Shown here one piece after another: positions 4,204-53,255 of a stretch of 64,000 nucleotides of DNA. Position numbers and translations under genes: made by a program. Under the pieces are notes generated by a model, which was given only the letters and a program-made list of their open reading frames with translations, did not search any database and was not told the origin of the DNA. Source of the DNA: an uncultured Candidatus Saccharibacteria bacterium. Lineage in GTDB: Bacteria; Patescibacteriota; Doudnabacteria; UBA920; 2-01-FULL-46-14. The stretch is from positions 64,133-128,132 of the forward strand of contig CAZMCQ010000004.1 of NCBI GenBank assembly GCA_964565195.1, read 5' to 3'. Positions within the stretch are counted from its first letter, which is position 1. The number at the start of each line of letters is the position of its first letter.

Positions 4204-4485
4204 ATGAATCAAAACGAGTATCAAAATTTACTAGCGCTTCTAAAAATAACCGGCGGGAAGTATATCCTCGTCGAAGACGGGCAACCCAAGGCGGTTTTGA
4301 TGAGCTATGAGGAATTTTCTGACCTCGCCGTCCCGCGCATTGCCGGCGAGCTCGCGAACCGCGTGGAACAGATTAACCAGGAGATCACGCACGCCCAAGT
4401 TTTGGATCTGCGCGAGGAGGTGATCGCCGAGCCGGATTTACCCGTAGCCGCAGAAATCACCGTGGAGCCGCTTGACCTGCTCTAG
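4204..4485 (+). CDS. small Phd/YefM-like (antitoxin-fold) protein. Orphan, with no partner toxin seen.
   Basis: ...KYILVEDGQPKAVLMSYEEFSDL... resembles the YefM/Phd N-terminal fold. Inserted between fusA and tuf. Confidence 0.4.
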   Translation: MNQNEYQNLLALLKITGGKYILVEDGQPKAVLMSYEEFSDLAVPRIAGELANRVEQINQEITHAQVLDLREEVIAEPDLPVAAEITVEPLDLL

Positions 4486-4546
4486 AGAATCTGTTATATT
4501 ATTTTCACGCCAATTTTTATTAACCAATTAATCCAAAGGAAAAACT

Positions 4547-5731
4547 ATGGCAGTAGGCAAGTTTGAACGCACCAAGCCGCACATCAACGTCGGCACGATC
4601 GGTCACGTGGACCACGGCAAAACGACTTTGACGGCAGCGATTACGCACTTTTTGGCCGGCAAAGGGCTCGCCAAGGAGCGCTCCTATGATTCGATTGACA
4701 ACGCGCCGGAAGAGAAAGAGCGCGGGATCACGATCAACACCTCGCACGTGGAGTACGAAACCGACAAGCGCCACTACGCGCACGTGGACGCGCCGGGACA
4801 CGCGGATTATATCAAAAACATGATCACCGGCGCCGCCCAGATGGATGGCGCAATTCTTGTGGTTTCCGCGGCCGACGGCCCGATGCCGCAGACCCGCGAG
4901 CACATTCTGCTCGCGCGGCAGGTGGGCGTGCCGCACCTCATCGTCTTTTTGAACAAAGTGGACATGGTGGATGACAAGGAGCTCGTTGACCTTGTCGAAG
5001 AGGAGGTCCGCGAACTTTTGAATAAATACGAATACCCGGGCAAAGACATTCCGGTGATCCGCGGCTCGGCTTTGAAAGCCATGGAAAACGACGTGGAAGC
5101 GCTCAAGGGGATTGAAGAGCTGGTGAACAAAATGGATGAGTACTTCCCGGAGCCGGTGCGCGACGTGGACAAGCCGTTCCTGATGCCGATTGAGGACATC
5201 TTCTCGATTGAAGGCCGCGGCACGGTCGTGACCGGCCGCATCGAGCGCGGGATGATCAAAGTCAACGACGAAGTGGAAATTGTCGGCCTCAAGGCAACGG
5301 CCAAAACCGTTGTCACCGGCATCGAGATGTTCAACAAATCGCTTGACGAGGGTCGCGCTGGCGATAATGCCGGCGTGCTCCTGCGCGGCACCAAAAAAGA
5401 AGAAGTGGAGCGCGGCCAGGTTTTGGCCAAACCCGGTTCCATCACGCCGCATGCCGAGTTTGAGGCGGAAGTTTATGTCCTGACCAAAGAGGAAGGTGGC
5501 CGCCACACGGCGTTCTTCACCGGCTACAAACCGCAGTTCTATATCCGTACGACTGACGTGACCGGCGAGGTGACCCTTGCGGCCGGCAAAGAAATGGTGA
5601 TGCCTGGCGACACTGTTTCGGTGACCATCAAACTCATCGCGCCCGTGGCGCTCGAAGAGAAGCAGCGCTTTGCCATCCGCGAGGGCGGCCACACGGTCGG
5701 CGCCGGCGCGGTGACGAAAATCCTCAAATAA
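4547..5731 (+). CDS. tuf: elongation factor Tu
   Basis: [33 protein letters not shown]... with the canonical sequence. Confidence 0.97.
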
Positions 5732-49967: not shown

Positions 49968-51909
49968 AGCCGGAAGGAGTGTGGAAGGAGGAGCAGGTTC
50001 AGAACTTGCCGTTGAAGAGGTTTTGATTGATCGCGATTCACGGGAGCGCCTGGAACGCGGCGGCGAGGCGCGATTGCCGTCAGTTTTTTTTCGGCTTTTG
50101 CTGCTGGTAGCTTTTGTGGTGGCCTTTGGGCGCCTGTATTATTTGGCGGTCGCCGAACATGAATACTATCGGCAGATTGCTGACGGCAATCGCTTGCGCA
50201 TTGAATACCTGCCAGCGCCGCGTGGGGCGATCTACGACCGTTTTGGAGAGGTCATTGTGGGCAATAAACCCAGTTTTGAGGTTGTGGCGAGCCCTCTGGA
50301 CCTGCCGAAGGATGAGGCAGCCAGGCAAGCGATCATTACTCGCGTCGCCAATATTTTATCATTGCCGGCAGAGGAAATTACCAGTCTGATCGCCGCGGCC
50401 AGCGCGGAGAGCGGGATAAATTCTGTTTTGGTAAAAGAGAATTTAACCCGCGAGGAAGCCCTGGTCTGGAGCGAGCAGGAACGCGAACTGGCTGGTTTTC
50501 ATCTCGCTAAAACCCCGATCCGGGATTATAAGGAAGCCCCAGCTTATGCGCAGCTGGTCGGCTATGTCGGGAAAATCACGGCGGAGCAGTACGAAGAAAA
50601 GTCGGCCGCAGGCTATTTTTATAATGATTCACTCGGCAAGACGGGATTGGAGCAGCAGTATGAACAATTTCTCCGAGGCGAGTTTGGCGAACGGCAGGTT
50701 GAAGTAGACGCGCGTGGCGCGGTCAAGAAAGTTTACGGCGAGAAGCCGGCGGTGACCGGCGAAAGTTTACATCTGAACATCGATGCCCGCCTGCAGGAAA
50801 AACTCTATTCGGTCTTGGAGGCGCAGCTGCGTTCTACTGGGCGTAAAAAAGCGTCGGCCATTGCGGTTGACCCGAGAAGCGGGCAAATTCTCGCGCTCGT
50901 TAACCTACCGTCGTATGACAACAATCTTTTTGCGGGCGGCATCAGCGTCGCAGATTACGCGCGCCTTACCCAGGATAAAAATTTGCCGTTGTTTAACCGC
51001 AGCGTTGCCGGCACTTATCCGCCTGGTTCAACCATAAAGCCCCTTGTGGCTGCGGCTGCCTTGCAGGAGGGTGTGATTACAGAAAAAACGGTCATCAACG
51101 ACCGCGGTTATATTCTGGTGCCTAATCCTTACGGCGGGCCGGATTACTATTTTTACGGTTACCGGAGAGAGGGACTGGGGCCTATGAATGTCCGATCTGC
51201 CATCGCGCTATCGTCTGATATCTATTTCTACACAGCAGGCGGCGGTTGGGACGAGGCAAAGGTTAATGGGCTGGGCATAGACCGCCTCGCGCGGTATTAT
51301 CAGGCATTTTATCTCGACCGGAAACTTGGTATAGATTTGCCGGGTGAGAAAACCGGATTTGTTCCGACGCCGGATTGGAAGAAGGAATATTTCAACAACC
51401 ATCCGATAGATTCGCGCTGGTATCTCGGGGATACATACCATGTGGCGATCGGGCAGGGCGATCTGCTCGCGACGCCGCTGGACGTAGTTTTTTGGACAGC
51501 CAGCATTGCCAATGGCGGGAAGATCTTTCGGCCATGGATTGCAAACCATGTCGAGGATGAGAACGGCAACTGGCTTGCGGAATTTAAGCCAGAGCAGATC
51601 GCTGCGCTGCCTATTGATGCGAAAAATTTGCAGATCGTTCGCGAGGGGATGCGCGCAGTGGTGACTGATGGCACGGCCAAAGCATTGGACACTTTGTCAG
51701 TGGCTGTGGCCGGTAAAACCGGCACTGCGCAGTTTGACGCGCGCAATCGCGCGCGCACACACGCCTGGTTTGCGGGCTTTGCGCCCTACGACGACCCACA
51801 GATCGCAATCGTCGTATTGATAGAAGACGGGGGAGAAGGCTCATCGATGTCTGTCCCCGTGGCCCGTGACGTCTTCGACTGGTGGGCGAAGAATCGGTAT
51901 CAGAAGTAA
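49933..51909 (+). CDS. mrdA: penicillin-binding protein 2 (transpeptidase)
   Basis: ...STIKPLVAAAAL... and KTGTAQ (SxxK, KTG). Confidence 0.85.
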   Translation: MRNPFRLKNTIEAGRSVEGGAGSELAVEEVLIDRDSRERLERGGEARLPSVFFRLLLLVAFVVAFGRLYYLAVAEHEYYRQIADGNRLRIEYLPAPRGAIYDRFGEVIVGNKPSFEVVASPLDLPKDEAARQAIITRVANILSLPAEEITSLIAAASAESGINSVLVKENLTREEALVWSEQERELAGFHLAKTPIRDYKEAPAYAQLVGYVGKITAEQYEEKSAAGYFYNDSLGKTGLEQQYEQFLRGEFGERQVEVDARGAVKKVYGEKPAVTGESLHLNIDARLQEKLYSVLEAQLRSTGRKKASAIAVDPRSGQILALVNLPSYDNNLFAGGISVADYARLTQDKNLPLFNRSVAGTYPPGSTIKPLVAAAALQEGVITEKTVINDRGYILVPNPYGGPDYYFYGYRREGLGPMNVRSAIALSSDIYFYTAGGGWDEAKVNGLGIDRLARYYQAFYLDRKLGIDLPGEKTGFVPTPDWKKEYFNNHPIDSRWYLGDTYHVAIGQGDLLATPLDVVFWTASIANGGKIFRPWIANHVEDENGNWLAEFKPEQIAALPIDAKNLQIVREGMRAVVTDGTAKALDTLSVAVAGKTGTAQFDARNRARTHAWFAGFAPYDDPQIAIVVLIEDGGEGSSMSVPVARDVFDWWAKNRYQK

Positions 51910-52038
51910 ACGGAGGTATTTGTCCACGAGTAGTATACAGATTATAAACAGCATATTCACACTTGATAAAATTTTCCCTTATTTTAGGCACAAGCAGTTT
52001 TTGTTGACGCAAAATAGGGGGTGTTGTAAATTATCTCT

Positions 52039-52249
52039 GTGGGGGGAATCTCTTTGAAAACGTGATTTGAGTGAGAGCGGGAAACCGTTTTCTGCCGAAC
52101 CGCCTGATCAGCGGCTTCGGGCCGGCGCCGACAGGCTCGCGGGGCAACTTGCGGGAACTCGGCTAAGGCGATTGGGTTTCGTTTTCAATCACGATTTTCT
52201 CCACCGATGAAGAAAGGTTCAGTGCGCTTGGCGCCTTGAATCTTTTTTC
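52039..52249 (+). ncRNA. candidate structured RNA of about 210 nt (6S-like sRNA or a cis-acting leader/riboswitch for the downstream gene)
   Basis: Promoter TTGACG-17-TAAATT at 52004-52032. A nested long-range helix joins 52056-52067 to 52186-52198, and GAAACC at 52081-86 to GGTTTC at 52174-79. The core at 52095-52170 is GC-rich with hairpins. The 3' end is a rho-independent terminator. No ORF is present. Confidence 0.45.
52215..52249 (+). terminator. rho-independent terminator closing the RNA/leader
   Basis: AGGTTCA-gt-GCGC-ttg-GCGC-ct-TGAATCT followed by TTTTTT. The RBS GGAGG and ATG at 52290 lie downstream. Confidence 0.65.
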
Positions 52250-52289
52250 ATTTTGTGTTATGCTCGCAGCAAATTTCTTGGAGGAAATC

Positions 52290-53255
52290 ATGGACGTTAA
52301 ACTGGTAAAAATGCCGATCACGGGCTATGCCAAGCCGGCCAATCCGAAACAGTTTTTTCCCTTGGTCAGGTTGGCACAAAACTTCGGGGTGGTGATTCGT
52401 CCAAAGGAGGGACTTCGGGGCGACTCCTATATCAAAATCACGCGGGGAAATTGGGCGGGTGGTAAGCGGACGCGCGTCGAGTCGTCGTACCGAACTTATC
52501 AGGAGGCGATCCGGTCGTTTCGCCACATCATGACCAGCATCATGACCACGTCAGGGGATTATGCCTTTTGGCTTCAGCATTTTTTGGAATTCCACAAGTT
52601 CCTCGCGACCGCTGATCTGAAGTCGTCTGATTCCCAAACCACGGCGCGAGTTCTGCTGAATCGGGCCGAAAAACGGTTCGCCAGGGCGCGCTGCCCCAAT
52701 TGTCTGGTCATCCGCGAAGCAATTTCCGGCGAGGATCTGCGGAAAAAAAGCCTCGCTGAGCTTCTGGAAATAGCGAATCCTAGCGCGGCGCGTGCGAAAA
52801 TTGTCTTTTGCGTGAAGGAGCCGCTGCAGGATGAAACCGAACGGATTAAGGCGCAGGTTAACCGCCTTGTTTTTCTTGAGAGCTTGCTCGGACGCATCTG
52901 GACGCACGAGCTCTATAACTGCTCGCTCGCGTTAAATCGGCTCATCGCTCTTGATGCCTATCTTGAAGATTTTCGGCCCTCGCTTTCTGCACACCAGCGA
53001 GTCATCAATCTTCTCGCATTGACGCTGGAGCTCACCCGACAGATGTTTGACCTGCGCGTACAGTACGCGCACAGACATCTTTTGGCGTTGCGGAAGGTTC
53101 TGCTCGCGTCCATCGGTGGGACGATTCCCAATGAAGCCAAGACGCGCCTGTGTGACGCCATGACCAACTTGGAGCATTATTGGCTCTGGTTGAATCTGGA
53201 GGATTCTAAGGGTCTCACCGGCCGTGAGTTGCAGTCTTTCGGTTGGGTGGCGTGA
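52290..53255 (+). CDS. hypothetical alpha-helical protein (322 aa)
   Basis: GGAGG 6 nt before the ATG at 52290. The ORF-track start at 52236 lies inside the terminator. No recognisable motif. Confidence 0.55.
   Translation: MDVKLVKMPITGYAKPANPKQFFPLVRLAQNFGVVIRPKEGLRGDSYIKITRGNWAGGKRTRVESSYRTYQEAIRSFRHIMTSIMTTSGDYAFWLQHFLEFHKFLATADLKSSDSQTTARVLLNRAEKRFARARCPNCLVIREAISGEDLRKKSLAELLEIANPSAARAKIVFCVKEPLQDETERIKAQVNRLVFLESLLGRIWTHELYNCSLALNRLIALDAYLEDFRPSLSAHQRVINLLALTLELTRQMFDLRVQYAHRHLLALRKVLLASIGGTIPNEAKTRLCDAMTNLEHYWLWLNLEDSKGLTGRELQSFGWVA

Follow-up and report, generated by a model that had tools for sequence, protein, structure and literature searches.

A probable new family of structured RNA genes between pbp2 and folD in Candidatus Doudnabacteria

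The 64,000-nt stretch of contig CAZMCQ010000004.1 analyzed here (the window) belongs to a genome of Candidatus Doudnabacteria, a group of the candidate phyla radiation (CPR, or Patescibacteria), whose tiny genomes are almost unexplored for non-coding RNA (ncRNA). It contains a gap of 380 nt, in which NCBI annotates nothing, between the stop codon of pbp2/mrdA (51909) and the Shine-Dalgarno (SD) sequence and start codon (52280/52290) of the next gene. This next gene, X, encodes a protein of 321 aa that is found verbatim in the metagenome-assembled genome GCA_016198105.1, and the whole locus is part of a syntenic block formed by mreC-mreD-pbp2, zero to three small genes, gene X and folD-greA-lysS. 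Positions 52039-52249 of the gap, read on the plus strand, almost certainly hold a stand-alone gene for a structured RNA; probably this is a self-contained gene of a previously undescribed ncRNA family that acts in trans and is possibly linked to protein X.

The plus strand of 52039-52249 folds with a minimum free energy (MFE) of -99.4 kcal/mol, versus -71.6 +/- 4.4 kcal/mol for 200 dinucleotide shuffles (z -6.32, none of the 200 being as good); the reverse strand has a z of -1.70. The fold is identical when the segment is embedded in 311- or 421-nt contexts. The boundaries proposed in an earlier note on this DNA, made from the sequence by eye, coincide with the inferred transcription start, the G at 52039, and with the point where the U-run of the terminator stops. 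The closing helices P1 and P2, which in the homologues described below total 21-28 bp and include sequence-invariant positions, lead to a four-way junction from which P3, P4 and P5 extend (Table 1). G-U pairs are frequent, and therefore the RNA strand is the plus strand.

Homologous loci, designated by handles such as L005, were fetched solely through homologues of protein X, without using the RNA. A homologue of the RNA was found close to gene X in all 11 independent loci, upstream of it in eight (the window, L006, L007, L008, L010, L014, L015 and L018) and downstream of it in three (L005, L009 and L011). The host genomes are far removed from that of the window: the encoded PBP2, FolD, GreA and X are 55-63%, 43-54%, 76-79% and 23-31% identical to those of the window, respectively, and the RNAs are 51-83% identical pairwise. 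Every RNA copy starts with GUGG(G/A)G and finishes with a strong hairpin and a U-run, and the MFE fold of each homologue, taken alone, reaches the same overall architecture. A gene that persists in lineages with FolD proteins only about 45% identical to that of the window is unlikely to be dispensable.

RNAalifold applied to the unedited MAFFT alignment of nine sequences predicted 45 pairs, 21 of them with compensatory changes. MAFFT mis-registers some helices, and so eight full-length sequences were aligned by hand, helix by helix, with the rows checked against the genomic sequence. In this alignment, which has 59 pairs, 91.6% of the cells are paired, compared with 79.3 +/- 1.2% in shuffled alignments (0/500) and 40-48% after sliding by 1-3 columns; 25 of the 59 pairs change on both sides (14.1 +/- 2.4 shuffled, 3-13 slid), and the covariation score is 0.429 (0.208 shuffled, about 0.08-0.14 slid). 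P1 and P2 are conserved in sequence, yet have five double changes: all 12 pairs of P1 are kept and two of them change on both sides (A-U/U-A and U-A/C-G), while P2 in the relatives shows changes of A-U to C-G, C-G to G-C and G-C to C-G. In P3 all eight pairs change on both sides, with 93.7% of the cells paired; in P4, 96.5% of the cells are paired and two pairs change on both sides. The same is true of two of the three pairs of P5a, which is 100% paired, and of six of the eight pairs of P5c. The same helices are thus maintained by compensatory changes in several divergent genomes, as judged from a hand alignment of eight sequences. A further helix that extends the closing stem in the window (Table 1) is specific to its lineage: the corresponding segments of the L006 copy (L006a) could pair alike, but its MFE fold differs, and in the remaining sequences the helix is not kept and has no covariation support.

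A covariance model built from the hand alignment gives the window copy 114 bits on the plus strand and 15.5 bits on the minus strand, and this copy is the sole strong match of the model in the 64 kb. The model also recovers the copy of L009, which was outside the seed, with an E-value of 6e-7, and the truncated copies of L010 (E 7e-4) and L011 (E 2e-3).

Covariation in related genomes, which the earlier note had proposed as a check, speaks for the P1-P5 architecture but not for the long-range helices drawn in that note, both of which compete with the pairings of this fold. Of these, the helix between 52056-52067 (GAAAACGTGATT) and AATCACGATTTTC is complementary as described; its second strand lies one base off, at 52187-52199, and the pairing is not kept in the relatives. 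GAAACC and GGTTTC are likewise complementary, but their pairing is not conserved in the relatives either, GAAA being the tetraloop of a local hairpin. The local hairpin written as CCGAAcCGCC-tgatca-GGCGgcTTCGG does exist around CTGATCA, but its 3' arm reads GCGG-C-TTCGG.

The same note had described the gap as having no open reading frame (ORF) and had named a small protein-coding gene as the finding that would speak against an RNA. The gap is real, but short ORFs are present in it (47 aa, 52 aa and others); none of them is kept in strand or frame across the homologues. The longest stop-free frames over the RNA switch both strand and frame between homologues, and peptide similarity is patchy in every frame, as nucleotide conservation alone predicts. 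With no conserved ORF and nothing annotated by NCBI, a small protein-coding gene was rejected.

Table 1. Features of the RNA gene, its upstream region and gene X in the window
Feature	Position	Strand	Description
Conserved upstream element	51913-51929	+	GGAGGTAT-N-TCCACG; window version GGAGGTATTTGTCCACG; directly after pbp2 stop
Tandem TTRTNAACA-type boxes	51942-51962	+	TTATAAACA at 51942-51950, exact; variant ATATTCACA at 51954-51962
Promoter-proximal conserved stretch	51983-52003	+	TTAAGCCAAAA-like (TTAAGCC-like element), then A/T tract
Sigma-70-type promoter of the RNA	52004-52032	+	-35 TTGACG 52004-52009; 17-nt spacer; -10 TAAATT 52027-52032
RNA body	52039-52204	+	166 nt; closing helices P1/P2; four-way junction with P3, P4, P5
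P1, 5' strand	52039-52050	+	GUGGGGGGAAUC; pairs with 52193-52204
Invariant UCUUU	52051-52055	+	In the window partly internal loop opposite UCAC; in other lineages fully paired with GAAGG
P2, 5' strand	52054-52062	+	UUGAAAACG; pairs with 52180-52188 (CGUUUUCAA)
Lineage-specific extension helix	52064-52070 with 52172-52178	+	GAUUUGA with UUGGGUU; predicted in the window
P3 hairpin	52073-52092	+	Invariant GAAA tetraloop 52081-52084
P4 hairpin	52095-52120	+	Loop CUGAUCA 52104-52110, within palindrome CUGAUCAG
P5 arm	52121-52169	+	P5a 52121-52123/52167-52169; P5b 52127-52131/52159-52163; P5c
P5 internal loop	within 52121-52169	+	Purine-rich GGC/UAA, conserved
P5c hairpin	52136-52155	+	GNRA loop GCAA 52144-52147
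P1, 3' strand	52193-52204	+	GAUUUUCUCCAC
Intrinsic terminator	52209-52249	+	GC-rich hairpin extended by A-tract/U-tract pairing; U-run 52243-52248
Promoter-like site for gene X	52236-52264	+	-35 TTGAAT 52236-52241; 17 nt; TG-n-TATGCT (-10 52259-52264)
Gene for protein X	52290-53255	+	321 aa; clade-specific family always adjoining the RNA gene

The RNA was compared with the 4227 families of Rfam 15. Nothing reached the gathering score in the whole 64-kb window, relaxed filters (E<=10) on 51900-52320 gave one noise match (E=5), and the ten homologous loci gave no match. A relaxed search of the window region together with the RNA-rich gaps of L009 and L005 returned noise only (mir-90, a ctRNA match to the terminator and PYLIS). 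This is in line with the earlier note, whose author had recognized no riboswitch consensus by eye, and we found no description of such an RNA in the literature. Housekeeping RNAs (tmRNA, signal recognition particle RNA and RNase P RNA) had no ARAGORN or Rfam match in the window, in which ARAGORN predicts no tRNA or tmRNA at all. A tmRNA- or tRNA-like end, brought to mind by the GGGG...CUCCACC ends, was rejected: the RNA lacks both a CCA and a T-arm, ARAGORN does not detect it, and the AC takes part in the P1 pairing.

The absence of any 6S or other Rfam match from the window, itself only a part of the genome, is compatible with one identity suggested in the earlier note, that of a 6S-like RNA which sequesters the RNA polymerase holoenzyme by mimicking an open promoter. 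The RNA resembles 6S RNA (ssrS, RF00013) in size (about 170-210 nt), in the long closing stem made of its paired 5' and 3' ends and in having a stand-alone gene with a strong promoter, from which it would probably be highly expressed. However, RF00013 and related models match neither in the window, nor in 51900-52320 when the filters are relaxed (E<=10), nor in the ten homologous loci. Instead of the large central bubble of a rod, on which 6S function depends, the centre of the RNA has a four-way junction, the three hairpins of which (P3, P4 and P5) each show compensatory changes, and the conserved sequence is found in the closing stem and the loops rather than around a bubble. It is highly improbable that this RNA is a 6S-like regulator, and nothing in the sequence points to a role in binding the polymerase.

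The region upstream of the RNA is conserved, too. The TTGACG-17-TAAATT promoter claimed in the earlier note was located at its place as a promoter-like site, with the inferred start 7 nt past the -10 hexamer, and in the other copies, a TTGACN/16-17/TAnAAT promoter is likewise followed about 7 nt later by the RNA start (13 nt in L006b, a variant copy described below). Just 5' of the -35 hexamer, nearly all homologous loci have the promoter-proximal stretch listed in Table 1, which resembles an UP element and may function as one. Of the 11 promoter regions of the RNA that were scanned, ten have at least one TTRTNAACA box and eight an 11-bp tandem pair; the boxes, spaced 11-12 bp from start to start and positioned near -97/-86 from the RNA start, are found at the matching relative position in L006-L009, L011, L014, L015 and L018. 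Their density is 15 per kb upstream of the RNA and 0.24 per kb in the remainder of these loci, an approximately 60-fold difference, which makes them a candidate operator through which a DNA-binding protein could regulate the RNA gene. By-eye alignment shows a sequence related to the element that follows the pbp2 stop at the same relative position in L006b, L008 and L015, and in part in L005, L007, L009 and L014; the occurrence of the GGAGGTAT-N-TCCACG element upstream of the second RNA of L006 follows the terminator of the first RNA. Judged by its sequence, this combination of a near-consensus promoter, an A/T tract, a conserved element and boxes corresponds to the arrangement of a regulated gene for a stable RNA.

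As the boxes resemble DnaA boxes, a replication origin was considered as well, and rejected because the GC skew is positive across the entire window (1-64000), its sign never changing; moreover, the boxes travel with the RNA promoter.

At the other end of the gene, an intrinsic terminator ahead of gene X, also reported in the earlier note, is well supported: four nucleotides past P1, the hairpin alone has an MFE of -24.9 kcal/mol (z -5.65). Equivalent hairpins, with compensatory changes in the upper stem, follow P1 after 3-5 nt in the homologues (in L009 without a spacer). Where the RNA precedes X, in eight of the 11 loci, 40-50 nt separate its terminator from X (about 70 nt in L006, via L006b), with folD-greA-lysS next. 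Such a layout, as the earlier note had pointed out, may be expected of a cis-acting terminator-type riboswitch or attenuator, in which an aptamer for a small molecule, for example a folate- or lysine-related one, would decide on read-through into X-folD-greA-lysS. Like the THF, ZTP and lysine riboswitch classes found near folate and lysine genes, the RNA is a domain closed by P1, with a terminator within 5 nt and, in most loci, with a gene and then folD and lysS downstream, and its complex fold with GNRA loops and conserved internal loops is aptamer-like.

Several observations set the RNA apart from these riboswitches. No known aptamer matches it, even at E<=10. To look for an antiterminator, each RNA was folded up to the terminator loop, that is, before the 3' arm is transcribed; no antiterminator is predicted, because in none of the eight homologues does the RNA body pair with the 5' arm of the terminator. 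Switchable P1 stems of riboswitches are much less stable than 21-28 bp, the combined length of P1 and P2 here. Nor does the RNA keep a constant 5'-leader position without an intervening promoter: it lies 3' of X in L005, L009 and L011, further structured regions bounded by promoters and terminators separate it from folD in L005 and L009, and promoter-like sites for X are located within the terminator. In the window, this site was read by eye in the 3' arm of the terminator and, with 8/12 hexamer matches, is below the scan threshold; at the same place, TTGATC-17-TATAGT in L018 and TTGATC-17-TATTAT in L008 pass it. Gene X thus appears, from these sites, to have its own promoter. We conclude that the RNA is very likely neither a riboswitch nor an attenuator, and that an aptamer governing the downstream genes is very improbable. 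What stands of the earlier note is a separate structured RNA, about 210 nt long, that has a promoter and a terminator of its own, and what falls is its reading as a riboswitch or a 6S-like RNA.

The adjacency of the RNA and X in all 11 loci, mostly with the RNA immediately 5' of X and with some 40 nt between the terminator and the SD sequence, could also be explained by a protein-binding autoregulatory leader of the ribosomal-protein type, in which X would bind the folded leader of the X mRNA to control read-through or translation. However, the gene order is reversed in three lineages, X appears to be transcribed from its own promoter, and conservation is much higher in the RNA than in X. The near-consensus promoter, the UP-like tract and the operator-like array likewise exceed what a leader needs. 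We consider an autoregulatory leader improbable.

The invariant UCUUU, identical in 8/8 aligned sequences whether paired or not, raises the possibility of a base-pairing small RNA. Its invariant CCUCUUU, which resembles the anti-Shine-Dalgarno end of 16S rRNA, would then target purine-rich ribosome-binding sites in trans, and L006b, which shares the first approximately 17 nt and the promoter with the first copy, recalls sibling small RNAs that have a common seed. Yet in every homologue this run of pyrimidines lies inside the closing helix of 21-28 bp, an elaborate covarying core would be needless for an antisense regulator, and no target was identified; the chance of this explanation is slim, somewhat below that of a leader. 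The environment of the stretch differs between two subtypes of the RNA: the window type has an internal loop opposite UCU and the palindromic P4 loop CUGAUCA(G), and the second subtype, in other lineages, has a fully paired CCUCUUU/GAAGG helix and an A-rich P4 loop. With only four sequences per type, this correlation hints that the P4 loop may dock near the UCU/CCUCUUU site.

Protein X gives few clues. An exhaustive HMMER search of 1.84 billion representative sequences found 13 remote homologues of approximately 300-320 aa with 23-33% identity, giving a family of 14 known members, all of which, where enough context is available, lie in the pbp2...folD block; a word-indexed protein search with X found only X itself, and its profile version only two. 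The alignment has no conserved 7-10-mer, and its conserved motifs include GVRCxN and WGAACCK. X has no sequence match in Pfam, NCBIfam, PADLOC, PHROG or PDB, and no Pfam match is repeated among the 14 members; the sole hint of a domain comes from the protein of the window, which matches HTH_37 at E 0.17. AlphaFold with the 14-sequence alignment yielded a model with a predicted local distance difference test score (pLDDT) of 87.6 and a predicted template modelling score of 0.80 (single-sequence AF2: pLDDT 45), in which a small N-terminal alpha/beta unit is predicted to be followed by a long helical bundle; Foldseek found no significant match for this model in PDB or BFVD. Annotating X, from which the earlier note had hoped to guess a ligand, therefore led to a remote family but to no known domain or fold. 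Guide systems of the TIGR-Tas, retron, bridge-RNA and omega-RNA types were rejected, X having no reverse transcriptase, nuclease, recombinase or Nop domain according to Pfam, PADLOC and Foldseek. A functional link between the RNA and X, either as the partner of the RNA or as the regulator acting at the upstream boxes, is possible, and we propose it only tentatively.

Among known orphan ncRNAs (raiA, OLE, ROOL, GOLLD, HEARO and others in Rfam), none matched in the window or in the ten homologous loci. The raiA motif is an orphan ncRNA of Firmicutes and Actinobacteria, about 200 nt long, which forms its own unit beside a conserved protein gene and folds into a multi-stem junction; to our knowledge, it has no established function. 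The RNA described here is similar to it in size, in its own transcription unit, in the neighbouring protein gene and in the junction fold with highly conserved nucleotides, but differs in having no Rfam match, in its CPR phylum, in its neighbouring genes and in the long, sequence-conserved closing helix. OLE RNA is clade-restricted (Firmicutes), about 600 nt long, highly structured and encoded beside genes for its dedicated Oap partner proteins; with these proteins it serves as a model for the relationship that may exist between the RNA and X. The RNA of the window, in contrast, is about 170 nt long and does not match the OLE model, and its partnership with X is suggested by adjacency alone. 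We class it as a new family of stand-alone structured ncRNA, akin in kind to the orphan raiA or OLE RNAs and a member of neither. It matches none of the 4227 Rfam families, and its sole constant companion is a protein family without a known domain or fold.

Taken together, these features suggest the following course of events. Transcription would be controlled by about 100 bp of conserved upstream sequence, including the operator-like tandem boxes, and would start at the G of GUGGGG, 7 nt past the near-consensus promoter; the strong intrinsic terminator would end it, and the transcript would be about 210 nt long. Covariation supports a structure in which the two ends of this RNA form the closing helix and the core comprises the four-way junction, two GNRA-capped hairpins and conserved purine-rich internal loops. 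Such an architecture is unlike that of a switch or a linear antisense RNA. We infer that the compact, tertiary-folded RNA acts in trans as a folded particle, most plausibly bound to protein, because the gene is independently bounded, the junction fold has invariant GNRA loops, the internal loops are conserved and the closing helix is conserved in sequence. Binding of a protein would be the likeliest mode of action, with X as the prime candidate for the partner or, alternatively, for the regulator at the upstream boxes.

Some points weigh against this interpretation. The start, the end and the very transcription of the RNA are read from the sequence, and transcription may continue through the terminator into gene X. 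Eight full-length divergent sequences (from 11 loci) are a small number, and fitting the decisive alignment to the structure by hand inflates the pairing statistics; the shuffles, moreover, ignore phylogeny. Within P5, P5b is only 67.5% paired and is flanked by recurrent G.A and A.A oppositions, which suggests that it may be a non-canonical motif rather than a plain helix. X lacks a recognizable RNA- or DNA-binding domain apart from the HTH_37 hint. Finally, the RNA family is confined to one syntenic block of one CPR clade, and its adjacency to X could be inherited gene order.

A bolder version, which we regard as unlikely, holds that the RNA and X form a new ribonucleoprotein of a Doudnabacteria-like CPR clade, that the RNA may, in some lineages, self-associate via its palindromic CUGAUCAG loop, that the TTRTNAACA boxes control the gene and that the pbp2-folD interval is a hotspot of undescribed RNAs. 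If true, the particle would pair a tertiary-folded RNA with a protein fold that is confidently predicted but structurally unmatched. In any case, the RNA and X are a concrete, testable pair for new RNA biology in organisms not yet grown alone.

The distribution so far is about ten Doudnabacteria-like lineages. A search for PBP2 synteny in GTDB representative genomes gave one relative (60% identity), in which lexA follows pbp2 and the RNA is not there; pattern scans for the RNA gave nine matches in JGI metagenomes and one in IMG/VR, all due to chance (no promoter, no fold, less than 16 bits with the model).

Additional structured regions were observed in several of the homologous loci. In L006, a second RNA-like unit with its own terminator (L006b, 854-1179) lies directly 3' of the first. 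It shares with the first the upstream boxes, the promoter and the 5'-terminal sequence (GUGGGGGG..CUCUUUGAA), and its body differs from that of the first and exceeds it in length (about 326 nt in all); the covariance model of the family misses it, and it has the appearance of a partial duplication that became joined to another RNA. Other GC-rich regions that fold strongly, apparently with promoter- and terminator-like bounds, are located between gene X or the RNA and folD: 4695-4925 in L005, 5085-5645 in L009, 2805-3030 in L014 and 4985-5222 in L018. The three that are shorter than 400 nt (L005, L014 and L018) have z from -4.4 to -7.1, and that of L009 is about 550 nt long. These regions match no Rfam family, and they do not align with one another, save for the short 3' end GCAGCCCTTAT shared by L006b and L014. 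The site seems to be a hotspot for undescribed RNAs.

Three minor observations concern coding sequences. The large ORFs at 40-61 kb of the window are almost all on the plus strand. In L005, the annotated FolD (356 aa) is extended at its N terminus by about 70 aa, and the extension covers a promoter-like site and a structured segment (4930-5100); this segment, just upstream of the usual folD start and with no Rfam match above noise, may be an unrecognized leader. The public assembly of the same locus also has a 70-aa gene called wholly over the RNA homologue (4418-4630) in a frame that is not conserved. This call is probably spurious, and recognition of the RNA corrects the annotation in at least this one relative.

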